Notes: generated by a model from the letters alone, not told the origin. DNA of 64,000 nucleotides from an uncultured Eubacteriales bacterium (GCA_964458655.1 CAYWJT010000001.1:4145-68144), one strand, 5' to 3'; positions 8,612 through 24,000 are shown, counted from the stretch's first letter. Program-made: numbers and translations.

Positions 8612-8743
8612 GCGTAACGGCCGTCTCCCGTTGACCGAGGGCGGGGCGGGCGAGGGAGGGCGGCTTCCGCAAGACCCCCGGATCGATGACGCGCGTCTGG
8701 ACCCGGCCCTTGACTTCGCGCCTCCGACAGCGCTAGGATCATC

Positions 8744-10744
8744 TTGGTAAAGGGGAACAAACCGATCATCGGGGGAGGTGTTCACCATGAAGGCACGGGC
8801 AGGGGTTTTTTAGTCGTCGTCCTGGCCCTTTCGGCTTCTCTCCAGGGCGCCAAGGCGAAATGGGTGAAGGTGGGAGCACCTGGCATCAGCACGGTCATGG
8901 CCTTGGCCGTGAGCGGGTCGAACGTCTTCGCCGCGGGCGAAGGGATCTTCCGTTCCCGGGACTGCGGCACGACCTGGGAGGACGTGGGGTCAGGCATCCC
9001 GGCGAAGTCGCTCTTCACCTGTCTCGCCGTCGACGCGTCGCGCGTCTGGGCCGGGTCAGTCGGCGAAGGGGTATTCGTCTTGAATGACGGCGGGAGCTCC
9101 TGGTCGGCGGCCGGCCCGGGGCTGACTGATCTCCGGGTCATGTCCTTGGCCTCGGACGGGACACGCATGTTCGCGGCGACGATGGGCGGCGGCATCTTCG
9201 TCACGGACGACGGCGGCGCGTCTTGGTCCCGGGCCACGTCCGGGCTGCCTGCGAACACCTCGATTAACTGCGTTTTCGCCCACGGGCCGTACCTTTTCGC
9301 CGGATCGGACTATCAGGGCTTCTTCGTGTCACGCGACGGCGGGAAACGGTGGACGGAGATCCGGACGAACATCGAGAAGCAGAACCCGGTCTCCTGCATG
9401 GTCGCGGCGCCGGATGCCTTGTACGCCGGGACCGTCAACGGCGTCTACCGTTCCGATGACGGCGGCCGGTCGTGGGTCAATCCCTGTTCGCCCGTCGAGT
9501 CGAGCCTCTTCGGCGTGCTGCCTGAAACGTCGGTGGTCTCCCTGGCGGCAAGAGGAACGGACCTTTTCGCCGGCACGTGCGGCGCCGGCATCTTCGTTTC
9601 GACCGACAGCGGAAAGAAATGGGCGCGGATCGAACCCGCGCTCAAGCAAGGCGATGTCTACGCCCTGGCGGTGTGCGGCGACCGTCTCTTCGCCGGGACC
9701 ATGTCCGGAGGCCTTTGGCGTCTCTCCCTGTCGGGCGAGGAGCCAGAGGCCGCGGCGCGGAAGACGGCCGAGATCATCTCGCTCGAGGAAGCGGTCAAGA
9801 CGGCGCCTGATGACGCCAAGGCTTGGGCCGACCTGGGCGCCGCCTATGTCTCGGTCAAGATGTTCGATGACGCCATACCGGCCTTTGAACGGGCGTTGGC
9901 CCTGGATCCCAAGGACATCAAGGTCCTGTGCATGTTGGCGAACACCTACGGATTGAACGAAGAGACGGACAAGGCCATCGAAACCTTTGAGCGGGCGACC
10001 CGGCTGAGCCCCGAGGCGGCGCCGGCCTGGTACGGCCTGGGCATCAGCTATAACGCCGCCGGCAGGACGGAGGAAGCCATCAAGGCCCTGAAAAAGGCAA
10101 CGGGCCTGCGTAGCGGGGAGGTGCATCTATGGATCACGCTGGGGCAGGTTTGTGAAGACGCCGAGCTCTTCGATGAAGCCATCGACGCCTACGAGCATGT
10201 GGTCAAGCTGACGCCGGGGGACACGTCGGCTTGGTTCAGACTAGGCGTGAACTATCTAGTGCGGGAACGCACCGCGGACGCGCTCGGCGCGTTCAAAGAG
10301 GCGGTCAAGGTCGGGCCCGACGACCCCATGGCCTGGAACAACATCGGCTACTGCTCCGAACAGCTCGGACGGCTGGACGAGGCCATCGCGGGCTATGAAC
10401 AGGCCGTTAAGCTGAAAACCGACTACGTTCGAGCCTGGGCTAACCTCGGCGTGGCCTATCGGAAAGCCGGGCGTTTCGCCGACGGTGCCGCCGCTTCGCG
10501 GCAGGCGGTCAAGCTCAACCCGAAAGATCCTTACAACTGGATCAACATAGGGGAATGTCACGCCGCGGCCGGCCAGTACGACGACGCCATCGTTGCCTTC
10601 GAACAAGCCGTCAAGCTCGACGCCGAGTCAGCCGAAGCCTGGAAGGCCCTCGGGGAATGCTATGAGAAGACGGGCCGCAAAAAGGACGCCCAGGCCGCCC
10701 TAAAGAAGGCCCGGAAACTGGATCCGGCTCTGTTCAAGAAATAA
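8744..10744 (+). CDS. BNR/Asp-box beta-propeller protein (Ycf48-like) fused to a C-terminal TPR domain; secreted
   Basis: Six or more SxDxGxxW repeats (SRDCGTTWE, NDGGSSWS, TDDGGASWS, SRDGGKRWT, SDDGGRSWV, STDSGKKWA), followed by about 300 aa of TPR. The start codon is uncertain: TTG at 8744 is the first in-frame start before a hydrophobic segment. Confidence 0.7.
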   Translation: MVKGNKPIIGGGVHHEGTGRGFLVVVLALSASLQGAKAKWVKVGAPGISTVMALAVSGSNVFAAGEGIFRSRDCGTTWEDVGSGIPAKSLFTCLAVDASRVWAGSVGEGVFVLNDGGSSWSAAGPGLTDLRVMSLASDGTRMFAATMGGGIFVTDDGGASWSRATSGLPANTSINCVFAHGPYLFAGSDYQGFFVSRDGGKRWTEIRTNIEKQNPVSCMVAAPDALYAGTVNGVYRSDDGGRSWVNPCSPVESSLFGVLPETSVVSLAARGTDLFAGTCGAGIFVSTDSGKKWARIEPALKQGDVYALAVCGDRLFAGTMSGGLWRLSLSGEEPEAAARKTAEIISLEEAVKTAPDDAKAWADLGAAYVSVKMFDDAIPAFERALALDPKDIKVLCMLANTYGLNEETDKAIETFERATRLSPEAAPAWYGLGISYNAAGRTEEAIKALKKATGLRSGEVHLWITLGQVCEDAELFDEAIDAYEHVVKLTPGDTSAWFRLGVNYLVRERTADALGAFKEAVKVGPDDPMAWNNIGYCSEQLGRLDEAIAGYEQAVKLKTDYVRAWANLGVAYRKAGRFADGAAASRQAVKLNPKDPYNWINIGECHAAAGQYDDAIVAFEQAVKLDAESAEAWKALGECYEKTGRKKDAQAALKKARKLDPALFKK

Positions 10745-10775
10745 GGACACGCCGGATCGTCCCGATGAAGAGGAA

Positions 10776-10960
10776 AGCCCTAGCGCCGCCGCGGCGCGGC
10801 CGGCGGCTGCGTCTCCGGGCGCCGCGAGCTCGTCGAGATGTGCCGGCAGCGGGCCAGGCCGTATCTTTTCTCTAACACCATCGCGCCGGTCATCATCTCG
10901 GGCATCCTCAAGCCCCTCGGGTCGATGACGCGCGGCTGGACCCGGTCGCCCTTGACACTG
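10776..10960 (+). pseudogene. Decayed partial copy of the 3' part of the alpha-oxoamine synthase gene, fused to its downstream intergenic sequence
   Basis: About 10796-10908 matches 8128-8240 with 4 mismatches in 113 nt, all at synonymous third codon positions. About 10909-10957 matches 8678-8720, the intergenic region. The intervening 8251-8677 is absent. Confidence 0.8.
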
Positions 10961-11017
10961 TGTTTCAGCCCCCGGGCTTTGAGACGGTGTAGCCTTCCCT
11001 ACTGACGACCTCCCCGT

Positions 11018-11046
11018 TTGACAGGCTCCCGGCCGGGATGTATCTT
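11018..11046 (+). promoter_or_regulatory. Putative sigma-70-type promoter for the M28 peptidase gene
   Basis: TTGACA, then a 17-nt spacer, then TATCTT, about 80 nt upstream of the ATG at 11127. Confidence 0.35.
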
Positions 11047-11126
11047 TTACCGCCTGCGGCTCGGCCGCGGAGAAGTCCGCCTTCCATCTACCGGCCAGCC
11101 GCCCTATCAGCTTAGAGGAGGTCCCC

Positions 11127-13289
11127 ATGTCGAAACGCGCCGCTCCCGCAGTGACGCTCGCGCTCGCGCTCTTTCTGTCAGCGCTGGCCGCTCTGGCCCA
11201 ATACACGCCGTGGCTCTACTGGACGCTCATCCCCAGGGAGCAGATGGACGAGATCATCGGCGAGGCCTCGGGCGAGAACGCCTGGAACACCGTCGCCGAG
11301 ATAAACGCCTTCAACAGGCAGCGGACCGACGAGGAGTTCGCCGCGAACTTCTTCGAGACCAAAGTCGTCTTCGAAAAGCTCCGCAAATACGGGCTGGACG
11401 GAGCCGAGATAGTCGCCTTCCCGGGCGGCGAGGCCTGGCGTCCGCTCCTGGGCGAGCTCTGGGAAGTCAAGCCGGTGCGCCAGAAGCTTGCTTCCATCAA
11501 CGACATGCTGCCCATGCTGGCCTCGGGCAGCGCGACTTCGGACGTCACGGCCGAGCTGGCCTGGGTCGGCCGGGGCACGCCCAAGGAGGTCGCCGACGCC
11601 AAGGTCGAGGGCAAGATCGCGGTCACGGAAGGCAACCTGATGACGGCCTACACGGCCGCGGTGCAGCAGGGCGCCCTGGGCATCGTCTCGATCAGCCAGT
11701 CCCGGCCTTACTTCGACCCGCTGCAGATGCCCTGGACCGGCATCTCTTTCCGCGGCATGGGCTACGAGAGCGTGACGGGACAGGCAGGCGCCACCCGGGC
11801 CAAGCCGCAGGAGCCCAGGTTCGCCTTCCAGCTGCCGGTGCGCGAAGGGGATTTTCTCAAGCGCAGGCTGCTTGCCAACGAGAAGATAACGGTCCGGGCC
11901 CGGGTCGAGTCGAAAATGGAGCAGGCCGACCTGGAGAACGTGACCTGCCGCATCCCCGGCACGGACCCGGGAGCCGGCGAAGTCATCCTTTCGGCCCATC
12001 TTTTCGAGGGTTTCGCCAAGCAGGGCGCCAACGACAACATTTCAGGGAGCGCGGCCATCCTGGAGACGGCCCGAGTCCTCAACACCCTGATCTCGGAGGG
12101 TCGCCTGCCCCGGCCGAGGCGCACCATCCGCTTCATCTGGGGCCCGGAGTTCTCGGGCATCGGCAAGTGGGTCGAGGCCAACAAGGAACTCATGGAAAAG
12201 ACCCTCTGCAACATAAACCTGGACATGGTCGGGGAGTGGCTGTCGAAGAACCAGTCCTTCTTCTGCCTGATGCGGACGACCTACGGCAACCCCCATTACA
12301 TAAACGACGTCATGGAGAACTACTACCGCTTCGTCGGCGAGGGCAACCGGGAGCGCATCCAGAACCGGAGCACGCCGGCGCGAGTCGTGCCGGTGCGCGT
12401 GGTCGCTCCTTTCGGCGCCGACGAGCCTTTCTACTATTCCATCGAGACCCACTACGGCGCCTCCGACCACGAGGTCTTCAACGACTGGGGCGTGGGCGTC
12501 CCCGGCGTCATGATGATCGCCTGGCCGGACAAGTGGTATCACACCTCGGGCGATGTGGCCGACAAGTCCGACCCGACCCAGCTCAAAAGGGCGGTGGCCA
12601 TCGCCGCCGCCGGCGCCTACACCGTGGCCGCCGCCGGCGCGGATGAGGCGGCGGACATCGCCTCCGAAGTCGCGTCCAACGCCTCACGGCGGCTCGGCCA
12701 TGCCCTGGCGCTGAGCATCGACGCGCTCAACAGGACCTCCGCCGAGACTTTCGGCGAGGATTACAAGTTCGCCCGCTGGACCATCGAGGCCGTCGTCATC
12801 AACGAGAAGGAAACGCTGGACTCGGTCCTGGAGCTCGCGCCCTCGAGCCGCGAGCTCGCGGCCCACGTCGCCCGCCTGAAAAAGGCCGTCGAGACCGCGG
12901 GCGCCGCGGAGCTCGCGGCGGTGGACGCCCACATGCTCACGGTCGCCGGCCGGCTCGGCCTGAAGCCCGCGGCTATAGTCCTTTCGAGCGAAGAGAAGCA
13001 GGCGGCCAGGCTCGTGCCCAGGCCGACCGCCAGGGTTCGCGAAGGCGGCTACAACGGCTACCGCAAGTACATCAACCAGGTCCCGGCCGCCGAGCGGGCC
13101 AAGTTCCCGGTGCAGGGCAAAGGCCTTTCCCTGGCCTCGAGCGGCGAGCTCGAGCTGCTTGTCAACGGCAAGCACAGCGCTCTCGACATCAAGAAGATGC
13201 TCGACGCCCAGCACGAGAGAAGGTCCACGGTCAAAGCGGTGCTCAACCACCTGCAAATCCTGAAGCTCGCCGGCCTCGTGGAGTGGTGA
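11127..13289 (+). CDS. Secreted M28-family zinc aminopeptidase with a PA-type insert domain
   Basis: AGAGGAGG RBS. Signal peptide MSKRAAPAVTLALALFLSALAALAQ. HLFEGFAKQGANDNISGSAAILE and downstream His/Asp/Glu ligand motifs are typical of M28. Confidence 0.75.
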   Translation: MSKRAAPAVTLALALFLSALAALAQYTPWLYWTLIPREQMDEIIGEASGENAWNTVAEINAFNRQRTDEEFAANFFETKVVFEKLRKYGLDGAEIVAFPGGEAWRPLLGELWEVKPVRQKLASINDMLPMLASGSATSDVTAELAWVGRGTPKEVADAKVEGKIAVTEGNLMTAYTAAVQQGALGIVSISQSRPYFDPLQMPWTGISFRGMGYESVTGQAGATRAKPQEPRFAFQLPVREGDFLKRRLLANEKITVRARVESKMEQADLENVTCRIPGTDPGAGEVILSAHLFEGFAKQGANDNISGSAAILETARVLNTLISEGRLPRPRRTIRFIWGPEFSGIGKWVEANKELMEKTLCNINLDMVGEWLSKNQSFFCLMRTTYGNPHYINDVMENYYRFVGEGNRERIQNRSTPARVVPVRVVAPFGADEPFYYSIETHYGASDHEVFNDWGVGVPGVMMIAWPDKWYHTSGDVADKSDPTQLKRAVAIAAAGAYTVAAAGADEAADIASEVASNASRRLGHALALSIDALNRTSAETFGEDYKFARWTIEAVVINEKETLDSVLELAPSSRELAAHVARLKKAVETAGAAELAAVDAHMLTVAGRLGLKPAAIVLSSEEKQAARLVPRPTARVREGGYNGYRKYINQVPAAERAKFPVQGKGLSLASSGELELLVNGKHSALDIKKMLDAQHERRSTVKAVLNHLQILKLAGLVEW

Positions 13290-13324: not shown

Positions 13325-14884
13325 ATGACCATGAGTAAAGCGCTTAACCGCGTCCTGGCCGCGCTCCTGGCGGGGACGGCCCTGCTCGCAGGCGGCGCCT
13401 GCGCCCGGCTCGAGCCGCGGTTCCGCAACGTCATCCTGTTCATCGGCGACGGGATGTCGGTCGAGTGCCAGGTGTCCCTGAGCCGCTACCTCTACGGACG
13501 GGACGACGGGCTGTCGTGGCATTCCCTGCCGGGCAGGGCGTATCTCGCCACCTGGGACGTCACGGCTTACAATATCCGCGCCCGCAAGGAAAAGAAGCCC
13601 CTTTACCGGGCCGGCGCCTTCGACCCGCGGCTCGGATACGACGCGGCCAGGGAAGGGCGGACCCCGCCCCCGCTCTCCGCCGCCGGGCCGGGGCCTTCGT
13701 TCCGGCTGCCGGCCACGGACTCGGCCTCGGCGGCCACCGCCTTCGCGGCAGGCATCAAGACCGACAGCGGGAACATCGCCTGGCTTCCTGGGGATCCCGA
13801 GAACGGCCGCGTCAGGACCGTCGTGGAGGAATTCCGGGAGCGGCGCGGCGGAGCCGTCGGCGTAGTCACCACGGTGCCGTTCAACCACGCCACCCCGGCC
13901 GCTTTCGTGGCGCACAACAAGAACCGGAGCAATTATTACACCGGTTACAGAGGCTTTACCGGCACCGGGCTGGCCGACGAGATCATCCTCGAGACCAGGC
14001 CCGACGTGGTCATAGGCGGCGGCCACCCGCTGCTCGACAACCCGGGGTTCGACCAGAAAAAGGGCTACATCTCGGAAAGACTGCTGACCCTTCTCCGCGG
14101 CTCCGAAGAATACGTGTTCGTGGAAAGGGAGCCGGGTGTTGACGGCGGCCGGGCCCTCCGGTCCGGCGCCGAGCGGGCCGCGTCCGGCGGGCGGAAACTG
14201 TTCGGCCTGTTCGGCGGCGATGGGGGCAGTTTCGAACTGCCCGAGCCGGCCGATGACCCGGGCCGGCCGGCCTTCACCAGGCCGACCCGCGAGAACCCGA
14301 CGCTGGCCGAGGCGACGGTCGCCGCCCTGCAAGTCCTGTCCTCCCGGGGACGGGGCTTCTTCCTGATGGTGGAACAGGGCGATATCGACTGGGCTAACCA
14401 TGACAACGACTTCCGCCGCATGGTCGGCGCCATGTACGACCTGGAAGAGGCCGTCAAGGCCGCCCGCGAGTTCATCGACAGGCCGGGGGACGCCGTGGAC
14501 TGGGCCGACACGGTCTTCGTCGTCACGGCCGACCACGGCACCGGCGGCCTGCGCCTCAACCCGGAAAAGCCGCTCGGGCCCGGCGACCTGCCTGCCCAGT
14601 TCCCCTACGACCCCAAGAAGATGCCGCCGCCGGGGAGCGACAGGCTCATCAACGGGAACGGCAACGGCAAACCCCCGGTCAAGAAGGCCTTCCTTTCGCC
14701 CTACGTGTACCCCGACGGCGAGGTCGAGTACTTCACGATCGGCCACACCAACGAGCTCGTGACGCTCTCGGTGTCCGGGCCGGCCTGGAAGCACTTCCTC
14801 GGGTTCGAAGGCCTCTGGTACCCCGGCCCCATCATCGACAACACCCAGGTTCACTCGGCCGTCCGCAAGGCCCTGGGCTTCTGA
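13325..14884 (+). CDS. Alkaline phosphatase family protein, lipoprotein
   Basis: LLAGGAC lipobox. LFIGDGMSVE is the PhoA-type active-site motif. Also FNHATPAAF and VTADHG. The start is ATG 13325 or 13331. Confidence 0.7.
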   Translation: MTMSKALNRVLAALLAGTALLAGGACARLEPRFRNVILFIGDGMSVECQVSLSRYLYGRDDGLSWHSLPGRAYLATWDVTAYNIRARKEKKPLYRAGAFDPRLGYDAAREGRTPPPLSAAGPGPSFRLPATDSASAATAFAAGIKTDSGNIAWLPGDPENGRVRTVVEEFRERRGGAVGVVTTVPFNHATPAAFVAHNKNRSNYYTGYRGFTGTGLADEIILETRPDVVIGGGHPLLDNPGFDQKKGYISERLLTLLRGSEEYVFVEREPGVDGGRALRSGAERAASGGRKLFGLFGGDGGSFELPEPADDPGRPAFTRPTRENPTLAEATVAALQVLSSRGRGFFLMVEQGDIDWANHDNDFRRMVGAMYDLEEAVKAAREFIDRPGDAVDWADTVFVVTADHGTGGLRLNPEKPLGPGDLPAQFPYDPKKMPPPGSDRLINGNGNGKPPVKKAFLSPYVYPDGEVEYFTIGHTNELVTLSVSGPAWKHFLGFEGLWYPGPIIDNTQVHSAVRKALGF

Positions 14885-14938
14885 CATTCCCGCGCGGTCC
14901 GGAAATAATCTCGGGCTCCTTGAATCGCGCGCCGCGGG
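14829..14938 (+). repeat. Left copy of a ~110-bp direct repeat: the last 55 nt of the phosphatase gene plus about 55 nt downstream
   Basis: atcatcgacaacacccaggttcac...ggcttctgacattccc... recurs at 17664-17773. Confidence 0.8.
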
Positions 14939-15303
14939 TGAGGGGGCATTTAGGGACTCGCGCGGCGGCCGACAGCGTGCCCTGCCACAGATCAATAAAG
15001 GCTTGAAATCGGCGTTCTTTTTATTATTATGAAATTATGACGTTGGGAAAAGGAAGGGTTTTCTGGGTAAACTTTCTTTTGTGCCTCATAGGGAGTGGGT
15101 TGTTTTTCTTCTCAGGATTCAGGTACTTTCATAATTCAGGTATCCGGGACTTCTCAATTGATGACTTGCCGTCATGTGCGATAGATGAATCCGGCAAGAT
15201 ATTCACAAGAAATTCCATTAAAGGGAAAGGCAGTTCTGATATATTTTAGCGGACAATTCTTCGCTTTCCTATATGGCCTTGAAAAAAAGGGAGGGTCAGG
15301 TCG

Positions 15304-16332
15304 ATGAATAAAGCCGCCGAACATAATGCCGTGGCTATATTGATGCTCCTGGTCATTTCAGCGGCCATGGCAATGAGCGAATGCAAAAAAACATCTGGAA
15401 TTGAAGCCCGGCTTGAACTGACATCCCATTTTCCTTCCGAGGCCCAAGACGAGAGATCGATCTGGCTCAACCAGGCCGTTGCCATGGGCGAGTCCGCCGA
15501 CGGCAGGTTCTATGTATGTAATAATCAGGAAAAGACGGTTTCGATATTCGACAGGAACGGTCGCTTTATTAGGAAATTCGGCCGGCCCGGCCAGGGCCCC
15601 GGAGATTTTCAAATGATCCAGAAAATAGTCTGCGATACGGGGGCGATCTGGATAATGGATTCTATGAAACAAGAAATCGGGCTTTATGATCCAGACGGTT
15701 CATATGTCCGCCATATCAAGCTTTTTAAGTCATATCAGGATATATGGATATCCCCGGACAAAAGAATATTCGCTATACCCAGGCCGAGGGCGGGCTCGAA
15801 TCTGGTTGATGTCATTGATGACACCGGAAAGCTTCTATATTCGTTCGGGGAGCCGGTCAAGTTTTCAGGCTCATTCTCAAATAACATCCTTAACAGCGCA
15901 AAAATAGCCGGGGACGGGCGGAGCATTGTCCTGTTGTTTGTCTCTTACCCATTGGCAAGAAAGTACGGACGCGACGGATCACTGATAAAGGAATGGTCAT
16001 TTGATGAAATACCGGAAGTCAATGAAAAGGGCCAGGAGAACATCGAGCGGCTCAGAAATTACAATCCCGGCAGGACCGGCTATTCCCGTATATTCGAGGC
16101 TGTGGAGAGCAAGAACGGCAGCTGGTATTTTTTGCGCAACAGGAAAAGCGGCATCGATATCATAAAAACAGACGACGAGTTCCGATTAAGAAGGATATAC
16201 CGGTATGAGGTGACGGATGACGGCGGATATTATGCCATGGATATGGAAATCGAAACGGCTCCTGCCGAAAGATTCTATATTCTTCGTTGGGTCCCTATGT
16301 CCAGGGTCGAGGTGTTTACGCCGAAAGAATAG
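15304..16332 (+). CDS. NHL-repeat / 6-bladed beta-propeller lipoprotein, paralog 1
   Basis: GGAGGG RBS. Lipoprotein signal ...AMAMSEC. FGRPGQGPGDF is an NHL-type repeat. It is similar in length (342 aa) and architecture to paralog 2. Confidence 0.7.
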   Translation: MNKAAEHNAVAILMLLVISAAMAMSECKKTSGIEARLELTSHFPSEAQDERSIWLNQAVAMGESADGRFYVCNNQEKTVSIFDRNGRFIRKFGRPGQGPGDFQMIQKIVCDTGAIWIMDSMKQEIGLYDPDGSYVRHIKLFKSYQDIWISPDKRIFAIPRPRAGSNLVDVIDDTGKLLYSFGEPVKFSGSFSNNILNSAKIAGDGRSIVLLFVSYPLARKYGRDGSLIKEWSFDEIPEVNEKGQENIERLRNYNPGRTGYSRIFEAVESKNGSWYFLRNRKSGIDIIKTDDEFRLRRIYRYEVTDDGGYYAMDMEIETAPAERFYILRWVPMSRVEVFTPKE

Positions 16333-16619
16333 CAAGGAGGCCGCTCCTCTTGCACACACATTTGTTGGTGCACGGGAGACAATATTTGGCAGTGGGACGA
16401 ATGCTGCGGCTACTGTTATAACAGAGAAATGGGGCTCTGGCTGGACTGCTGCAATAATACTTGCGGCAATAATTGATGCCCGGACCGCCTTAACTTCCGA
16501 CCCGACGATTCCCTATCCTGAGCCCATCAGGGTAAAATCATAAAGGTGGGCTATCCCGGCTGCTCATGCAGTGAGAAATACTACCGGTCCATGTCGGGTA
16601 TAGGAAAGGAGCGGTATCC

Positions 16620-17648
16620 ATGAAGTCATCGAAGTATGCACGGCAGATGATGTTATTCGCCGGGCTTTTGCCGATGGTCATAAGTTGCGGCGGGCCGAGA
16701 CAGGAAACGATAAAAGTGCAACCGATAGAGATAGTCGCTTCGTTCCCTGGAGAAGAGCTTTCCGGTCAGAGCGTATTCTTGAACGGGGCCCTTTATTTCG
16801 CGCATGACGATCAGCGGACTTTTTTCATTTCGAATACTAGAGAAGGGAACATCCTTCGGTTTGATGCGGAAGGCAATTATGTTGAGACAATCGGCCGCAA
16901 GGGCCAGGGCCCGGGAGAACTATCATATATCAACGATATAATGGTGATTGACGATGAAATAGCTGTTCAGGACATCGGGAACCATAAAATTCAGTTCTTC
17001 AGCAAGGAGGGGAAGCCTCGGGACAGTTTTCGCACGTTTAAGACCTATCGCGGCATGGCTTATGATAAGAAGAGGGGCTTGATCTATGCCGCTCCGATGC
17101 TCAGCAGGCCGGATGAGGAGCTCGTTGACGTGTTGGATCTCAACGGGAAGCTTATACGCTCCTTTGGCAAGCCTCTTGAGTTCGAGCGGAAATGGACGCA
17201 ATTGAATATGGTTAATCTTTCCCTTACCGATGGCGACGAGCTGCTTTTGGCCTTTGTCTTTTTCCCCATAATCAGGAAATATAGCCAGGAGGGGAACCTC
17301 CTGACGGAAAAGCACATCGACTACGGCCCCTGGCGAGAAAAAGAGGCGAATAATATCGCGGCTTATAAAGACAGTTTGGCGAGTGCGATCAACCCGTCTT
17401 TCTATGCGGTAATGAATGCGATCAGGAATTGGAAACGGCGGCTTTTTATTTTAAGCTTGCTGCCGGAAAGAACCATCCTGGAATTGGACGCGGCACTCCG
17501 CGTCAAGAGTGTCTATCTTGATGCGAACCGGAGCGATTATTTCGCCGTTGATTTCATTGTCAGTGAAGATGAGGGGGGACTGAAGTTTTATGTCCTGCAG
17601 GTTATGCCCGAAAACGTAGTCGACGTCTTCGGCTATAAAAAATACTAA
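16620..17648 (+). CDS. NHL-repeat / 6-bladed beta-propeller lipoprotein, paralog 2
   Basis: AAGGAG RBS. Lipoprotein signal LLPMVISCGG. IGRKGQGPGEL NHL repeat. The conserved blocks are colinear with paralog 1. Confidence 0.7.
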   Translation: MKSSKYARQMMLFAGLLPMVISCGGPRQETIKVQPIEIVASFPGEELSGQSVFLNGALYFAHDDQRTFFISNTREGNILRFDAEGNYVETIGRKGQGPGELSYINDIMVIDDEIAVQDIGNHKIQFFSKEGKPRDSFRTFKTYRGMAYDKKRGLIYAAPMLSRPDEELVDVLDLNGKLIRSFGKPLEFERKWTQLNMVNLSLTDGDELLLAFVFFPIIRKYSQEGNLLTEKHIDYGPWREKEANNIAAYKDSLASAINPSFYAVMNAIRNWKRRLFILSLLPERTILELDAALRVKSVYLDANRSDYFAVDFIVSEDEGGLKFYVLQVMPENVVDVFGYKKY

Positions 17649-17663
17649 ATGAAAGGAAGGTAT

Positions 17664-17773
17664 CATCGACAACACCCAGGTTCACGCGGCCGTCCGCAAG
17701 GCCCTGGGCTTCTGACATTCCCTCACGGTCCGGGATTATTTTCGGCACCCCTTGAATCTCGCGCCGCGGCGAT
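17664..17773 (+). repeat. Right copy of the ~110-bp direct repeat
   Basis: Its first 55 nt differ from the left copy at 1 position (tcg to gcg). The following non-coding 55 nt are about 70% identical to the left copy. Confidence 0.8.
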
Positions 17774-18020
17774 CGCCTGCTGTCTTCTGCTCCTTCAGTT
17801 CCTCTGGGCGCCCGTCGAGGCGACGCCCGGGGAGGATTACACGCTCTACCTGTTCAAGCTGACCGAGGGCGAAGCGGCCGGCTACGTCTCGATCTACGAA
17901 GGCCCCGTGATCGATGTCAAGTGCCCGCCGCCCGGGTCGGACGTCCAGGGCTCGTCCAGAGGAGGCGGAGGCGGCAACCCGCCCGGCTCGGGCCGCGCAA
18001 GAGTGAATAAATAAGCTGCC

Positions 18021-21000
18021 TCACCGGATGGCGATCACGGCGCCCGTTGAATAGGCCGCGAACTCGGGAGCGTACATCGACTGCAAGGTAGCCGGCGCGG
18101 CCTTGAAGACGCCGGCCGTGGCGCAGCGCAGGCGGTGGCTGAGAGTGTATTCGCCCTGCGGCAGCCATTCGATGAAGAAGTTCGTGCCGCTGTCACGGAC
18201 CTCCTCGTAGCGCGCCAGGCCCAGTTCCCACTTGTAGCCGGACCTGAGCGTCACGGGCTCGCAGCCGGCCGGCCGCGGGTCCCTGAGGTGCACGTATTCG
18301 GCCTGATGGCGGGCCCGGACCGAGAGCCGGACCTCGATTTCGTCGCCCACCGCGAGCGGCGCGCCCTCGCCGAGCGGCTTCAAGACGACTTCGCCGCCCC
18401 GCTTCTCGCGCTTGTAGTAGGCCCGGTCCACGGCGAACAGGTCGCCCTCGCTCTTTTCGGGCAGGCGGTCGGTGCTGAAGTGCCAGGTCGCGCTCGCGAA
18501 GGCCGGGCCCTTCCCGGTCTTCGTCAGGCGGACCTTCGCGCAGTCCGGCCCGAGCTTGTCGCCGGTTATTACAAGCCGGTTCTTCTTGCCGGTGTACCTG
18601 TCGGGCTCGAAGACGAAAGAGGCCTTCAGCCCGCAGGCTTCGGCCGTAACCGACTCCCGGACGGCCGGGCCGCCCGTCTCCTTCAGGAACCAGGCCACCG
18701 AGTAGAGGACCTCCGCCGTGGCCCTGGTCGATTTCCAGTGGTTGAGCTTCTTGTTGAGGAAGAGCCACTGGACGAGCCCCTCGCTCCGCCTGTCGGCCGG
18801 GTCGAGCTCGAGAAGAGTCCGCAACGCGAAGGCCTGGCTTTCGATGGTGTCGTTGTACCAGAGCCAGGCGCGGTCCTCGGGCGCCCAGCTCGTCCCTTCG
18901 TCCTCGGTCGTCCTGGCGCTGTCCATGACGCTGTCCCAGACCAGGGCGGCGTCTTTCGCCCTGCCGGCCCGCTTGAGCGTCAGGGCCAGGAAGCCTTTGA
19001 GATAGGGCGAGTGCTCCTTCCAGTGTTTGAAACAAAAGTCCAGCATACGGGCGCGGTCGGCGGCCGTGAAAGAACCTTCCGTCCAATCCTGAGAGGGGAA
19101 GTTGCTGAGGACGTAGTTCAAGAAAGTCACGAACTCCCAGCCTGTGTCACGGGCCATGAGGCCGGCCGTCATGTCGTCGAGATAGCGGCCATGCAGATAT
19201 TTTAAGGCCCTGGCCACGGGTTCTTTCGGCACCTCAGCCCCGAACTCGAGGGCCTTGGAGAAGCCGTGGACGATGTAGAGGGTCATGTAGGGCGACGGCG
19301 GGCCGCCCGGCCACCAGGGGAAGGCCCCTGAGGCGAGCTGAGCGCCGAGCAGTTTCTCGAGGGACGCCTGCCTCTGGGCCGCGGCCGCCCTCGGGTCGAG
19401 GACCTTGGCCAGGTCCTCGCCGGCGTCCTTCCCGCCCCGGGCGGCGTCGAGCCAGGGGGTCTCTTCGAGCGACATCTTGCGGTTGGGGTCGGCGGCCTCG
19501 AAGGCCTCGTAGGCCGTTTCCCGCTTGCTCAATTCCCGGGCCATGCGCTCGACCTGCGGGTACCGGCTGTAGAGGCTGGTCAGGATGCCGGTCGCGAGGA
19601 AGCGGTTCAGGGTCTGTTCGGTGCACTCGTAGGGATAGTTGACGAGGTAAGGCAGGGCCTCGAGCAGTCCATAGAAAAGTTGGGCGTCGACGGTGACGAC
19701 GAGCTGTTCATTAAGCAGCGTCGGGTCGCCGGACCGCGCCATGTCCTCGAAGACGAGCTCGCGCGGCTTGCCTTCCTTGAGCGCCGCGAAACGCGACTGG
19801 ACGAGGTGCATCCGGCCCGGCAGCACGGGCAGGGGACGGAGCTCGCCGTCGGACATGTCGCCGGCCCGCGCCATGACCTTGAAGGCCGCCGTGCCGACCC
19901 GGACGGGCGCTGTCAGCGGGAAGCTCACCGTCGTCCCGGCGCCGGGTTTGACCGTGAACGGCCGCAGCGGGACGCTTTCCGGCAGCCCGAAGGCCGGGGC
20001 CAGGTTCATGCCGGTCAGGGGGTCGCTCACTTCGAGCGCGACTTCGCCGGCCAGCTCCCGGCCGCCGGCGTTGTTGACCACGACGCGCAGTTCGGCCGAG
20101 TCTTCCTCTCGCAGGAAGCGCGGCAGGTAGGGCCGGACCACGAGCTCCTTGACGGTCCGGGCCTCGGCCTCGAGCGAACCCGCCTCGAGTTCGCGCGTGA
20201 CGGCATGGACGAAGACGCGCCATGACGTGACCGAGTCGGGCACGCTGAACTCGATGGCGGCCGTGCCGTCGTCGCCCGTGAGAAGATGCGGCTGCCAGAA
20301 GGCCGTCTCGGCGAAGTCGGAGCGCGGCGCGGACGGCGGTCCAGGCCGGACCAGGCCCATCTCTTCGTGGACCGTGATCTCTTCCCGAATTTCAGGAGTC
20401 AGCGTCTTGGCCGCCACGCTCCTGGGCGCCTCGGCTCCCACGGTGGCATCGACTTCGCCCACAACGCCGCCCAGGACCCCGCCGACGACCCCTCCCTCGA
20501 TTCCGATAGAAGAGAGTCTTCCCGGCCCTCCGACGCCGTATCCGGAGATGGAGAGCAGACGGTCCTCCCGGAAGGCGGGGCTGGCCGGGATCTTCCGCCA
20601 TCCCCGGTCGGATTCGAACAAGGTCCAGGCCGTCCCCAGCGCCGCCTTCCATAGGCTCGCGCCGGTCCGGTCCGCGTAGAGCGCCGATACCCGCGGCGGC
20701 CGGTGCGTCTCGAAAAGGTCGAGGCTGCGGTCGTACATGTAGGCCAGGAGCTCGGCCGCGCCCTTCTCAGCCGGCCGGCCGTCAGGCGTCTTCACCGTCA
20801 CTTTCCATGTTTCGCGGGCGCCGGGCGCGATCCTGTCACGAAAGGTCGCGAACGATATCCTGAGCTCTTTGTTGTCCCAGGGCACCAGGACCGAGGCGGC
20901 CTCGCTCATGAACTGGTGGTCGCGAACGGCGCAGGCCGAAACGCTGAAGCCGCCCCGGAGCTCCTCGGTCACGGCCACCTCGATGACGCTGCCGTCCGTT

Positions 21001-24000
21001 CCGGCCTCGAGGCGGCGGCTTTCCAGGAGTCGGCCGCCGCTCCAGATCTCGAAGAGGACAGGCTGGCCCGCCCAGCCGCTCGCGACGAGGAGGCGGGCCG
21101 TCCCGCCGACCGGAACGCTGGGCTTCTCGGCCCTGACGACGAGCGGCAGCTTGAGCTCCGGGCCGCTTCTACCGGCCGTGAGGAAGTCGAGCCTGTCGCG
21201 CGCCGCCGCGCCGAAGTCGTCCTTCGTTTCGTAGATGAAGCGGTAGGCCCCGGCCGGGAGCGCCGGGACGCTTACGGCCGCCCGGCCGGAGGCGTCGTGC
21301 TCGACCGCGCCGCGGGCCGCTTCCGGTCCCTGCGCCCACACGGCCAGGATGTCTTCGGAGGCGCATGACTCCCAGCGCGGCCGCAGGCGGTCGCCCGGTG
21401 TCGGCGGAAAAGCCGGGTCTTCAGGGCCCGGACCGGGCGGCAGGGGCTGGTCGGCGGGAAGGAGGGTTCCGACGGGCTGGATGAGCCGGACCACGCGCCA
21501 GCCGCCTTTGCCGGGCCTGGGCGTCCCGTCGAGGTCCGTCCGCGAGATCGTGAACGAGGCCTCCCGGCCAGAAGGGAAGAAGCCGCTCCCGGCTTCGACC
21601 CGGGCCTCGACGCCGACGAAGCCCAGCCGGAAGGCGCGCTCCGCGGAACGGGTTTCGCCGCCCTCGTCCGTGACGTCCGCCGAAAGCGAGTATAGGTAAG
21701 AAATCCCTTCCGCCTCGCCTTCCCGTGTCTCTTCGGCCCTGGGCGTGAACTCTACCAGGCAGGAGCCGTCATCGCCCGTCTTCGCCCGGCCGCCGGCCAC
21801 GACCCGGCTCGGACCGGACGGGTTACGCCGCCGCCATCGGGGGTTGAAGACCGGTTCGCGCCGCACCTGCCAGACGACCTCGCCGCCCGCGACCGGGAGG
21901 CCGAAATAATAGCGGGCTTCGAGCTTGAGCTTCGCCGGGCGGTTCAAGCGCAGCGGCTTGTCCGGGTCCTTCACCGAAACCTCGAAGGTCGGCCTTTTGT
22001 ATTCTTCGACGCGGATGCGGGCCCGTCCCGCGGGCGAGGCCCGCAGGCTCCAGCTGCCGAGCGGACGGCCCGCGGCCGGGATGACGAATTCGCCGCCGGC
22101 CGTTCCGAAGCCGTTGGTCACGACCGAGGCCTGGGCGACCTCCTCGGAGTTGTCGTCCTCGAGCCGGACGGTAACCGTCGCCCCGGCGGCGGGCGAGAGG
22201 CGTCCGAGGTCGCGCCGGCTGCTGTAGGCCAGGACCTTCCAGCGCACCTTCTGACCCGGCCGGTAGACCGACCGGTCGGTATATATGAGCGAGGCCCGTG
22301 TTTCCCGGGCTTCCGGCCTTCTTCTGAAGAAGGAAAGGAACTTGGTGCTGAAAGCCAGGTCCCGGCCCTTTCTGGCTGTTATGAAATAGCCGCCGTGTTT
22401 CTCGCGCGCCGCGAACCAGGCCCGGCCTTCTCCGTCGGTCGTCCGAGACTCGAGCTTCTCCAAGCCTTTTCCCCAGGAAAAGGAGAAGAGAGCGACCTCG
22501 GCTCCGGGGACGGGAAGCCCCGAACTCCCGGAAACGGCCTGGACCTCAACCCTTCCGGTCCCTGACTCTTCCCCGTCCCGGCGGATGAGAAGGACGATGT
22601 CGCTGACGCAAATACCCAGGCCGACGACCTTGTTTTCCGGCCCGGCGAAGTCCTCCTTTGCCGACGCGGCCAGGAGATAGAGGCCCGGTTTCAAATCTCC
22701 GGGCAGCAGTGAGTAGGTGAAGTGTTCCCGGTAATCGGCTCTAGCGTCCAGGTCGACGCGCCATTCGGCGTCCGGACGGCGGCTCTCGGCCGCTTTGCGC
22801 GCGTCTTCGCCCTCTGGGAAAAGGAGGCGGTTCTTCGCGTCCTTGAGCAGCGCTTCGGCGTCCAGGGCGAAGGCCCGGATGAAAAGATGGTCGAGGTTCT
22901 TGTGGCTTATGCGGATGGAACGCCGTCCCGGCGAGTCGTTCTCCATGGCCTTGACGTTGAAATCTGGCGCTTCGATTGCCCGGACGACGTGAAGACAGCG
23001 CCGTCCGCCGGGAGAATCGGGGAACCGCTTGACGCCTTCCAGGGCGATTTCGCGGGCCCTGACGAGGGCGCCGGGGTATTCTTCCTTGCCTTCATGATCA
23101 GCGAGCAGGGCCTGGCCGGCCGCCCACCAGGCATGCTTGCGGTTCGAGGAGGAAGCCAGGAACGCGGCCAGGTGCCGTTTGATCAGTGCTTGGCTCTCGC
23201 CGCTCTCGAAAGCGTCGAAGAGGGCCCGGACGAGCTCGAAGCGCGCCTCGAGCGCCGCCTCGAACCTGCCTGAACGCCTGCTCCAGGCTTCGTGCTCGCC
23301 GAGAAGCGCGGCGAGCTTTTCCACGGGATGGGCTGAAGGCGAAGACAGGACGGCGGCCGCGTTCTCGGACCGGGTCTTTCCGGCCTCGGCCAGAAGGCCC
23401 TTGAGGTCGACGAGCCAGGTTTCGTCCATCTGGCGCGGCGCCCAGAAGCTCTTGTCGGCGAGCAGGCGGGCGAGGTGGTAGACCACGGCGTCGCGAAGTG
23501 CGTCGCGCACGCCGGCCGGGTACTCGCCGGCCTTCCAGAAATCGGGGAGGTCGGCCGTCTTGAGGCCGGCCAGCTTCTCCCGGTCCTTCCAGACCCTGAG
23601 GAGCGCGTCCCAGCCCTCGGCGAAGATCTGGTCCCTGGTCCAGGACTTCAGGTCGAGAGGCTCCCGGGATTCGACGCGCTCCCGCTCGCTTATCTCCCAC
23701 GAATAGGCACGGTAGTAATCCATGAGGGACTGGCCGTAGAAGAGGTCGAGCATGTCGCGCTCGAGAGGGGATTCGGGCCAGGGCTCGGACTTGAAAAAGC
23801 GGACCGCCGTCTCGTAGCCGTGCAGGGCGGAGCGGAGCCCGCCTTCCTTTATAAGCGACCAGGCCCAGAGCGCTGCGTCGCCGGACTTCCTGGCTTCGGC
23901 CCGTGCGCGGGCGCATTCGGCCGCCGCCTCCTCGAACTTCTGCTCCTCGATGAGCTTCTCAACGGCCTTTCGCGCGGCTTCGGAAACGGCCCGGGCCTGG

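Follow-up and report, generated by a model that had tools for sequence, protein, structure and literature searches.

A low-GC islet with a decayed NHL-propeller cassette, flanked by direct repeats of an alkaline phosphatase gene 3' end

Foreign DNA is known to integrate into the 3' end of a gene and to provide a substitute 3' end, as with e14 and phage 21 at icd of E. coli and SGI1 at trmE, and many islands integrate likewise at tRNA genes. Campbell-type insertion-duplication and homology-facilitated illegitimate recombination are known from Streptococcus and Acinetobacter genetics; to our knowledge, natural fixed cases of such laboratory-defined insertion mechanisms have rarely been documented. 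Two solved structures serve below as references for propeller proteins: 3fvz, peptidyl-alpha-hydroxyglycine alpha-amidating lyase, and 4raa, Bacteroides BF0058.

The locus described here lies in a stretch of DNA of 64 000 nucleotides from an Aminicenantes bacterium, which is referred to as the window. Its features are collected in Table 1.

Table 1. Coordinates of the island genes, the direct repeat and the host flanks, counted from the first nucleotide of the window.
Feature	Start	End	Strand	Description
Alkaline phosphatase	13325	14884	+	Pfam PF00245, E = 1e-45; 519 aa as called by JGI
Direct repeat copy 1	14831	14937	+	Phosphatase 3' end (54 nt) with 53 nt downstream
High-GC spacer	14938	14990	+	53 nt between repeat copy 1 and low-GC DNA
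orf70	15037	15249	+	N-terminal remnant (membrane helix and ~30 residues) of a ~307-aa thioredoxin-like gene
NHL1	15304	16332	+	342-aa secreted six-bladed NHL/DUF5128 propeller (predicted), intact; Pfam PF17170
Cys-rich peptide core	16333	16476	+	QGGRSSCTHICWCTGDNIWQWDECCGYCYNREMGLWLDCCNNTCGNN followed by a stop codon; similar to precursors after propeller genes elsewhere
NHL2	16620	17648	+	342-aa paralogous propeller; Pfam PF17170
orf121	17649	18014	+	Small gene; its ATG is still island DNA and immediately follows the NHL2 stop codon
Direct repeat copy 2	17662	17769	+	Displaced phosphatase 3' end and downstream sequence
Alpha-2-macroglobulin	18021	24152	-	MG2, A2M and bMG10 Pfam domains (JGI gene list); convergent with phosphatase

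The island and its flanking repeat

The low-GC island occupies 2,724 nt (14938-17661) and has a GC content of 48.3%, compared with 65.8% for the remainder of the window (standard deviation 2.2% per 2.7-kb segment, minimum 61.2%). This is in agreement with the fall from ~68% to ~45% given in the initial annotation; the drop begins near 14990, after the high-GC spacer. The codon usage, which had been called foreign on first inspection, is indeed so: GC3 is 0.57-0.61 in NHL1 and NHL2 and 0.81-0.96 in the adjacent genes. That the island DNA is foreign by composition is thus supported. Its only ORFs are orf70, NHL1, the Cys-rich core and NHL2, and, as had been proposed, no integrase or transposase is encoded. 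The Pfam hits given for the JGI contig include none for ~10 kb on each side either, nor is any recombinase Pfam family listed within ~10 kb in either of the two lineages that carry the island. The window holds no tRNA genes. The island does not fit a transposon or insertion sequence: there is no transposase, no terminal inverted repeat was found at the island ends, and the duplication measures 108 nt.

The phosphatase gene is intact and provides, with its last 54 nt, the coding half of repeat copy 1. Its C-terminus (...IIDNTQVHSAVRKALGF) agrees with that of relatives, and the synteny of the gene with M28 peptidase and aminotransferase genes is kept in Aminicenantes. An upstream GTG at 13283 is a possible alternative start. 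Direct succession of the phosphatase and alpha-2-macroglobulin genes, the arrangement sought in relatives, is found in L078, the closest island-free relative. There the two genes are convergent with 39 nt between their stop codons, and no island is present; the alpha-2-macroglobulin orthologue is 61% identical, and at a phosphatase identity of only 65% L078 stands too far off for the junction to be defined. In L076 other genes occupy this spacer, the content of which is different in each of the three (L076, L078 and the window). None of the 47 Aminicenantes-type relatives that were inspected has the island, and at 47 Aminicenantes-type loci the phosphatase is followed by a convergent HEAT-repeat gene.

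The two repeat copies align over 108 columns with ten mismatches and one indel (89.8% identity, BLAST E = 8e-34). Two stretches, of 36 nt (17687-17722) and 24 nt, are shared without any mismatch. Copy 1 contains the phosphatase stop codon TGA at 14882-14884 and a small CCGG-loop-TCGG hairpin. The initial annotation was right about the direct repeat, its make-up of phosphatase 3' end plus downstream sequence and the single difference in the coding part (1 of 54 positions). Its second copy is to be corrected from 17664-17773 to 17662-17769, its parts from 55 + ~55 to 54 + 54 nt, and the identity of its non-coding part from ~70% to ~82% (nine mismatches and one gap in 54 columns). In the alignment, four of these nine mismatches are one event, the exact inversion of the 8-nt hairpin loop from AAATAATC to GATTATTT between CCGG and TCGG.

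In the non-coding part, orthologous copies differ across the two sister lineages at nine and seven positions, and the two copies within one genome at nine and six. As these between-lineage and within-genome differences are alike (star-like), the repeat copies could have been identical at insertion, and the diverged allele previously invoked as the donor is not needed. The 54 nt of copy 2 that once coded for phosphatase carry no changes where about three are expected, which may reflect constraint or gene conversion; the latter, if true, would make the repeats a less clear record of their history.

Copies identical when formed would also suit a repeat made locally, apart from the arrival of the island, by a tandem duplication or a template switch in replication or repair (microhomology-mediated break-induced replication), or else by the repair of a phosphatase gene first truncated by the island. 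Microhomology rearrangement is active at this locus: it has acted at the right junction of the sister lineage and has removed an internal part of an aminotransferase relic (both described below). Against this, at least two events would be needed, or a precise return of the fork 108 nt upstream, and neither island/repeat junction has microhomology in the sequence, which makes a local origin of the repeat improbable.

The high-GC spacer is 88.7% identical to that of the sister lineage and has no counterpart to the right of copy 2; both island-bearing Logan contigs begin within it. It may be flank DNA brought from an earlier host. Its position after repeat copy 1 is left unaccounted for by a homology-anchored insertion and counts against that reading.

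A rare cassette in decay

Judged by gene order and sequence similarity, the island derives from a rare three-gene cassette, of which it is a copy in decay; we defined the cassette here from L065, L067, L068, L069 and L070. The order thioredoxin-like protein, propeller, Cys-rich peptide is present in L065, L067, L068 and L070; L069 has the propeller and the peptide only, adjoining a transposase fragment. The first product is anchored in the membrane and has two thioredoxin-like CxxC domains, the second is a secreted NHL six-bladed propeller, and the third is a Cys-rich peptide of ~75 aa, likewise secreted, which follows the framework QC..C...C.C.G..CC..C..LDCC..C. In 1.84 billion proteins this peptide family is represented 27 times. 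The cassette is of low GC in every host where it is found (40-48% at all loci except L067, where it is 28-44%; known host flanks 54-73%), and these hosts are unrelated. The L070 cassette measures ~2.8 kb and has no recombinase and no flanking repeat in the available flank; repeats therefore do not accompany the cassette in general.

The window copy keeps the order of the cassette, with the first gene cut to 70 codons, the peptide gene devoid of start codon and leader, and a second, paralogous propeller added. The window propeller is 38-43% identical to those of intact copies. The neighbourhood comparison thus narrows the function that the initial annotation had left open to that of a decayed thioredoxin-like/NHL propeller/Cys-rich peptide cassette. 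In intact cassettes the propeller and the thioredoxin-like protein most likely act in oxidative folding of the Cys-rich peptide, the role of the propeller being read from gene neighbourhood only. The intact propeller genes could still be useful alone, for example by binding or neutralising such peptides.

The pair of 342-aa NHL propellers with 25-30% identity described initially is recovered, NHL1 and NHL2 being 29% identical across their full length. Both match PF17170 (DUF5128, 6-bladed beta-propeller) with scores of 58.6 and 42.9 bits, respectively, against a gathering score of 22.9, although the match covers only residues ~64-150 and ~80 of the 321 profile positions. An AlphaFold model of NHL1 (pLDDT 85.4, pTM 0.84) was compared using Foldseek with the PDB; the best matches are the NHL domains 7nyq, 4zlr and 1q7f, with target-normalised TM scores of 0.81-0.85, and further matches are PAL (3fvz) and BF0058 (4raa). 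NHL1 is accordingly predicted to have the six-bladed propeller fold, which is assigned to NHL2 from the full-length alignment at 29% identity.

The designation of both as lipoproteins may hold for NHL2 only. By eye, its signal ends in ...LLPMVISC, which fits the lipobox [LVI][ASTVI][GAS]C, whereas in NHL1 a signal-like helix is followed by ...AAMAMSEC, with Glu at position -1 and no lipobox. NHL1-type homologues in L065, L069 and L070 do not have the corresponding Cys.

NHL1 is 97% identical to the sister-lineage protein P0001; of the codon changes, 15 are synonymous and 10 non-synonymous, a pattern from which we conclude that NHL1 is under purifying selection. NHL2 is 40% identical to P0003. 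orf70 matches the thioredoxin-like N-terminus of L070 1279-2202 in BLASTP (50% identity over 26 aa, E = 1e-4) and differs from its sister-lineage counterpart by five synonymous and nine non-synonymous changes and an indel; it is probably a pseudogene. The Cys-rich core is in frame with NHL1 beyond the NHL1 TAG stop codon and has neither a start codon nor a signal peptide; the ribosome-binding sequence AAGGAGG is retained at 16334-16340 in this region. The core is 58-67% identical to those of the 73-74-aa precursors in L065, L069 and L070, and differs from the sister lineage by five changes in 144 nt, three of them synonymous and one Leu to Phe.

orf121 crosses repeat copy 2 in a frame other than that of the phosphatase and continues into host-type DNA. 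Beyond the repeat it has a coding signature, with nine synonymous and seven non-synonymous changes in its own frame compared with 3/13 and 1/14 in the others, and a signal-peptide-like segment. A 1-nt indel puts its N-terminal part into another frame in the sister lineage, and orf121 has no Pfam or NCBIfam match.

Copies in other samples and age of the insertion

The same junctions as in the window are present in JGI 3300043177, JGI 3300043267 and Logan SRR12686701. In a sister lineage that differs by ~4% in DNA, the island is found at the same site in JGI 3300035099, JGI 3300032173 and Logan SRR11714386. The divergence at fourfold sites between the two lineages is 6.1% for NHL1 and 5.9% for host genes. 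From this equal divergence of island and flanks at a shared site it follows that the insertion is old and vertically inherited: the sequence comparison shows it to predate the split of the two lineages, with vertical inheritance since.

These copies also bear on a possible assembly artefact, in which a separate low-GC replicon or organism sharing the phosphatase 3' stretch was threaded into the chromosome. Real recombination and a chimeric assembly path through the common core would leave the same geometry, and breaks in the Logan contigs fall at the repeat core and close to the left junction. However, the structure is seen in at least six samples with different assemblers, the sister island has diverged together with its flanks, and the sister right junction is a unique propeller-relic/repeat fusion that is impossible by threading. 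The contig is not chimeric in the sense feared at first, and we regard an artefact as scarcely credible.

In the sister lineage NHL2 is reduced to a 221-nt relic through a deletion by recombination between the GRKGQGPG codons and a similar sequence of the right repeat (VRKALGF codons). This microhomology deletion, not a repeat-by-repeat excision, is the only rearrangement at the sister right repeat. With 83% identity the relic is more diverged than neutral sites; either this was no simple deletion or the gene was a different allele. Together with the 70-codon thioredoxin-like gene and the peptide gene lacking start and leader, this loss shows that the cassette is decaying.

Excision between the repeats, suggested in the initial annotation, finds no support: a 24-mer from the repeat core, used for detecting an empty site or circle junction, matched only the sister-lineage filled site in metagenome contigs and nothing in viral contigs, and the sister lineage points to stable vertical inheritance. 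The island is best read as a partly decayed remnant and not as an active mobile element.

Origin and comparison with known systems

A second case of the same geometry lies 4 kb upstream in the window, where a relic of an aminotransferase 3' part is found behind an inserted TPR gene. The duplicated sequence spans coordinates ~600 nt apart, which suggests that the original duplication was too long for a typical att site, and the relic has itself undergone an internal microhomology-driven deletion.

The island could alternatively be what is left of an integrase-driven element that entered at the phosphatase 3' end with a replacement 3' end and later lost its integrase and most of its other DNA, deletions leaving only cargo between attL and attR in a CIME-like state. 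Such elements classically leave direct repeats made of the 3' end of a gene, which itself stays intact; the repeat contains a 36-nt perfect core, the island is visibly decaying by deletions, and one cassette copy elsewhere adjoins an rve_3 integrase-core fragment. Yet neither lineage has a recombinase in the island or ~10 kb around it, and the L070 cassette, similar in size, has neither recombinase nor repeat. The ~600-nt duplication of the second case looks homologous rather than site-specific, and attB/attP forms were not found in the searched collections. We consider this origin rather unlikely, bearing in mind that homologous and site-specific recombination are not separable from sequence.

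For the island as a whole we favour a homology-anchored insertion-duplication, with a probability of roughly 0.55. In an ancestor of this Aminicenantes species the phosphatase and alpha-2-macroglobulin genes stood end to end, and ~2.7 kb of foreign low-GC cassette DNA was acquired in the spacer between them. Entry was probably anchored by ~108 nt of homology comprising the phosphatase 3' end and downstream sequence, either through one crossover with a circle (Campbell type) or through a homologous join on one side and an illegitimate one on the other (homology-facilitated illegitimate recombination). By either route the insert would end up between two copies of the anchor, with the phosphatase gene intact. 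In the window the anchor shows homology to its target and is found on either side of the insert, and the phosphatase keeps an intact, conserved C-terminus. The repeat geometry is as a single crossover would leave it, in line with the Campbell-type reading given initially, although a circular and a linear donor leave the same sequence. No contig in the collections searched has the anchor beside the cargo; with neither such a donor nor an empty site or circular junction found, the entry mechanism is read from the repeat geometry.

The island resembles e14, phage 21 and SGI1 in that a foreign segment directly follows a gene, a diverged 3'-end duplicate lies on the far side and the target is intact. 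It differs from them in having no integrase, excisionase or phage gene, in its size of only 2.7 kb, in a repeat that runs 54 nt past the stop codon and in that no excised form or empty site is seen. With Campbell-type and homology-facilitated insertions it shares a short anchor that forms a direct repeat around the insert, independence from mobility genes, and a second example in the window with a longer anchor. As in CIMEs and decayed islets between convergent genes, only cargo lies between the repeats, composition is atypical, the spacer is variable and genes decay; unlike in CIMEs, the evidence points to long stable inheritance.

The propellers resemble DUF5128/NHL proteins such as BF0058 (4raa) and the lyase 3fvz in their PF17170 match above threshold and predicted six-bladed fold, although their sequence identity to solved structures is only 11-15%. 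Intact cassettes recall NHLRC2-type thioredoxin-plus-NHL proteins in pairing a propeller with a thioredoxin-like CxxC protein, which in the cassette is a separate gene, truncated in the island.

The island and its propeller genes

The DNA between the alkaline phosphatase gene and the alpha-2-macroglobulin gene has a GC content of 48.3% over 2,724 nt, about 8 standard deviations under the window average of 65.8% (sd 2.2%, 2.7-kb windows). Third-codon-position GC is 0.57 and 0.61 in its two propeller genes, NHL1 and NHL2, against 0.81-0.96 in the neighbouring genes. The encoded proteins are members of the DUF5128/NHL propellers and share 29% identity over their full length. The AlphaFold model of NHL1 (pLDDT 85, pTM 0.84) matches solved NHL domains with target-normalised TM scores of 0.81-0.85, and further matches peptidyl-hydroxyglycine lyase (3fvz) and Bacteroides BF0058 (4raa). 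The low-GC island with two paralogous propeller genes proposed in the initial annotation is thereby borne out, while, of the two products described there as lipoproteins, only NHL2 has a canonical lipobox. A search of 14600-18200 against Rfam at E <= 1 returned no RNA element. The window contains no tRNA genes, and a tRNA gene as integration target was therefore dropped.

Features of the island, its surroundings and the related cassettes (window positions unless a database contig is named)
Feature	Contig	Position	Strand	Remarks
Alkaline phosphatase gene	window	13325-14884	+	
Repeat copy 1	window	14831-14937		
High-GC spacer	window	14938-14990		53 nt
Low-GC island	window	14938-17661		
orf70	window	15037-15249		matches first 60 residues of the thioredoxin-like protein, then stops
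NHL1	window	15304-16332	+	342 aa; Pfam PF17170 (DUF5128, 6-bladed beta-propeller) above gathering score
Cys-rich peptide core	window	16333-16476		in NHL1 frame, directly after its TAG: QGGRSSCTHICWCTGDNIWQWDECCGYCYNREMGLWLDCCNNTCGNN, then stop
NHL2	window	16620-17648	+	342 aa; PF17170 above gathering score
orf121	window	17649-18014		ATG in island DNA right after the NHL2 stop
Repeat copy 2	window	17662-17769		
Alpha-2-macroglobulin gene	window	18021-24152	-	
Cassette	L065	3-2021		flank ~58% GC
Cassette	L067	3-2288		
Cassette	L068	348-3422		
Cassette	L069	1264-2538		flank ~54% GC; adjoins rve_3 transposase fragment
Cassette	L070	1279-3475		~2.8 kb island; flank 69-73% GC; adjoins sulfatase gene

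Age and erosion of the insertion

A 45-kb JGI contig (sample 3300043177), a JGI fragment (3300043267) and a Logan contig (SRR12686701) all contain the island in identical form, junctions included. A sister lineage of ~96% DNA identity occurs in JGI 3300035099, JGI 3300032173 and Logan SRR11714386, and its order is the same: phosphatase, copy 1, spacer, NHL1, copy 2, orf121, alpha-2-macroglobulin. Between the two lineages NHL1 is 97% identical at the amino-acid level, with 15 synonymous and 10 non-synonymous codon changes, and fourfold degenerate sites have diverged by 6.1% in this island gene and by 5.9% in host genes on the flanks. This equal divergence, together with the shared order, means that island and flanks have travelled together since the lineages split. 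A chimeric contig is ruled out, since six samples share the same junctions and the island has diverged in step with its flanks. The comparisons also show the island to be stably and vertically inherited, not recently mobile. The insertion is older than the 4% lineage split and has decayed stepwise since, which makes its history datable.

The mobility and excisability that the initial annotation had implied are not supported. An exact 24-mer of the repeat core occurs in the JGI metagenome contigs only at the filled site of the sister lineage, and nowhere in IMG/VR; the exact repeat-core scan gave no empty site, phosphatase protein look-ups gave filled sites only, and no circle was found. Phage carriage was set aside because the viral contigs gave no related propeller, the NHL profile scan returning weak, unrelated NHL repeats only. 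Both Logan contigs with the island start inside the high-GC spacer immediately right of copy 1 and not in the shared repeat core (L002 at 14979, L063 at 14960), which could stem from reduced coverage or from variation within the population at the left junction.

Erosion, and not repeat-by-repeat excision, is the only rearrangement visible at the repeats. In the sister lineage 16495-17690 is replaced by 221 nt, of which the last 60 nt read ...AANTKEGNILGFDSKGNYVATI, homologous to ISNTREGNILRFDAEGNYVETI of NHL2, while the upstream part is riddled with stops. Within the codons of its GRKGQGPG motif this relic runs into copy 2 at position 17691, so that copy 2 is only 78 nt long in the sister lineage, and similar sequences are found at the join (ATCGGCCGCAAGGGCCAGGGC in the propeller gene and GCCGTCCGCAAGGCCCTGGGC in the phosphatase 3' end). 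The rearrangement is best read as a microhomology deletion that destroyed NHL2, and it provides a direct view of a repeat-flanked islet being eroded in this way and not excised. The sister-lineage contig L064 is also without most of the M28 peptidase gene (1-230 compared with window 10901-13014, with 11067-12950 missing), leaving a 91-aa C-terminal ORF, a further sign of a neighbourhood in structural flux.

The direct repeat bounding the island is present as first described, apart from slightly shifted coordinates of the second copy, and the alignment of its two copies, 108 columns long, contains 10 mismatches and a single indel. Its first 54 nt, which close the phosphatase gene (TGA at 14882-14884), show one base difference, as had been noted; the 54 non-coding columns carry nine base differences and the indel, which corresponds to ~82% identity instead of the 70% reported earlier. 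In the alignment a small CCGG...TCGG hairpin has an 8-nt loop whose sequence in one copy is the exact inversion of that in the other (AAATAATC versus GATTATTT), and this single event accounts for four of the nine non-coding differences. Folding of the non-coding half is no better than that of shuffled sequence.

When both copies from both lineages are placed in one alignment of these 54 non-coding columns, the two window copies differ at 9 positions and the two sister-lineage copies at 6; the orthologous comparisons give 9 for copy 1 and 7 for copy 2, and the cross comparisons between copies and lineages 4 and 7. Such star-like differences fit a duplication whose copies were the same, or almost the same, when it arose not long before the lineages separated; the non-coding hairpin region would then have changed fast, with the loop flipping back and forth. 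The diverged allele that the initial annotation invoked as the source of the repeat is, given these counts, possible and not required. The formerly phosphatase-coding 54 nt of copy 2 show zero changes where about three are expected, and this may be due to gene conversion from copy 1 or to constraint from orf121. A promoter-like match (CTGACA, a 16-17 nt spacer, and AATAAT or GATTAT; a consensus match only) lies at 14881-14909 and 17712-17739, where it overlaps the stop codon of the phosphatase in each copy of the repeat, and the duplication may have supplied a promoter to the island genes and orf121.

From its start in the island, orf121 reads through copy 2 out of the phosphatase frame and on into high-GC DNA. 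Past the repeat it differs from the sister lineage by 9 synonymous and 7 non-synonymous changes, compared with 3/13 and 1/14 in the other two frames, and this frame-specific synonymous excess makes it very likely that orf121 is coding. The sister orf121 also has its in-frame ATG in island DNA and reads the repeat in a different frame via a 1-nt indel, so that the N-terminal 35 residues are encoded in different frames in the two lineages. No canonical start is found between the repeat and the conserved part, and the insertion seems to have given orf121 a new 5' end. It has no family match and no homologue in L076 or L078, two related loci.

Cargo: a decayed peptide cassette

Homologues of the propellers are extremely rare, with 21 matches among 5.8 billion proteins and only four closer than E = 1e-15. 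Upstream of the propeller gene in L065, L067, L068 and L070 lies a gene for a ~307-329-aa protein with an N-terminal membrane helix, a conserved CxxC and a C-terminal CxC, whose profile weakly matches thioredoxin-like structures with both halves. In these four contigs and in L069, one to three peptide genes come after the propeller gene, each for a product of 73-90 aa with a signal peptide and the fixed cysteine framework QC..C...C.C.G..CC..C..LDCC..C. A full HMMER scan of 1.84 billion representatives yields only 27 such Cys-rich peptides. The L068 cassette also contains a MauE/DoxX gene. Whatever the host flank, the cassettes, which occur in unrelated hosts of higher GC, have 40-48% GC, except that in L067 (28-44%). 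No repeats beyond chance surround the cassette in the available flanks of L070, L069 and L065.

The window keeps this gene order in ruined form, with orf70 and the peptide core on either side of NHL1. Because the cassette is in addition low in GC across hosts, we regard the island as a decayed copy of a small roving operon. The peptide core is 58-67% identical to cores elsewhere, ends at the same position and keeps all ten Cys codons and the ribosome-binding sequence AAGGAGG, with neither start codon nor leader. It differs from the sister lineage at 5 of 144 nt (three synonymous changes, one L to F, and the stop replaced by Arg in the sister). The core is either decaying slowly as a relic or still being translated by an unusual route, such as read-through; in the more exotic version the leaderless core may be made as a C-terminal extension of NHL1 by read-through of the TAG.

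From gene neighbourhood, the most plausible role of the intact operon would be the production and oxidative folding of a disulfide-rich peptide for secretion. The literature searched gave nothing on the cassette or DUF5128 and nothing relevant on Aminicenantes genomic islands, and the cassette appears to be undescribed there. It is conceivable, albeit improbable in our estimate, that the island is the fossil of an undescribed roving mini-operon for a bacteriocin-like or signalling peptide, with the kept propellers acting as orphan binding or immunity proteins against the peptides of neighbours; two propeller genes under purifying selection would then outlive the decayed peptide and oxidoreductase genes.

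Insertion site and route of entry

The host is a member of Candidatus Aminicenantes, and the order aminotransferase, (M28 peptidase), phosphatase is conserved across 47 loci of this phylum. In those loci a convergent HEAT-repeat/3-keto-disaccharide-hydrolase gene lies 40-180 nt past the phosphatase stop; its window counterpart is at ~24389-27781. The nearest phosphatases outside the species are only 65-66% identical. In L078, one of these relatives, 39 nt separate the stop codons of the phosphatase gene and a convergent, 61%-identical alpha-2-macroglobulin gene, and the HEAT gene comes next. The arrangement that the initial annotation proposed to look for, with the phosphatase directly followed by alpha-2-macroglobulin, thus exists, though only in a relative too distant to fix the exact junction. 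In L076, another of them, the same space is taken up by a UvrA-like gene, an LTXXQ gene and a shorter MG2 gene. The differing contents in L076, L078 and the window identify the spacer after the phosphatase as a hotspot that varies between lineages.

A second insertion-duplication is observed at 7364-11126, where a gene for a 666-aa TPR/BNR-repeat protein (8744-10744) separates the aminotransferase gene from the M28 peptidase gene; in relatives the aminotransferase directly adjoins M28 or the phosphatase. The repeat pieces are 8118-8239/10791-10912 and 8662-8714/10901-10956. The aminotransferase relic after the TPR/BNR gene consists of a 122-nt internal piece (96% identical) and 56 nt of the gene's downstream sequence (84%), fused via ~12-nt microhomology. 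In the intact gene these pieces are spaced in a way that points to an initial duplication of ~600 nt, which was later shortened by a 12-nt microhomology deletion. The pair 1079-1126/3442-3489 was rejected as a third case, being part of a dispersed ~35-nt intergenic motif, AAATATGGGGACAGTTTACTCGTTCACCTATTTTTC, with four copies in 5 kb (63-96 and this pair on the + strand, 4793-4828 on the - strand). The motif may be a regulatory or promoter-associated element and is unrelated to the island repeats.

The footprint of the insertion consists of an intact target gene, the insert, and a displaced copy of the last 54 nt of the gene plus 54 nt downstream. The same footprint would result from any of three routes: (a) a circular molecule that carries the patch enters by a single crossover; (b) linear DNA recombines homologously on one side and is joined illegitimately on the other, 108 nt upstream; or (c) a site-specific element integrates, bringing a substitute 3' end, and later loses its integrase. 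The single-crossover mechanism of the initial annotation is plausible and fits the geometry, and it is unproven. From geometry and analogy only, we favour (a) or (b), because no recombinase is encoded in or near the island in either lineage, because the cassette is of the same small size elsewhere and likewise has none, and because the second insertion-duplication, 4 kb upstream, looks too long for an ordinary att site. To route (c) we give about a quarter of the probability. An integron cassette was rejected for want of an integrase and because the repeats duplicate the phosphatase 3' end and are not attC-like palindromes. The island lacks the recombinase by which integrative elements are recognised and has none of the features that define a transposon.

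As an object the island is of an ordinary kind, a small islet gained by horizontal transfer at a hotspot; genomic islets of this size and age are common. It offers a clean case, from nature, of genes being gained with no mobility genes in the uncultured phylum Aminicenantes. The more promising lead is its cargo, a very rare, always low-GC cassette for a disulfide-rich secreted peptide. Among known systems, e14 and phage 21 integrate at the 3' end of a gene, icd, and CIMEs are cargo-only, repeat-flanked remnants; the footprint of the island resembles that of such gene-3'-end integrations, that of CIMEs, and that of laboratory insertion-duplication.
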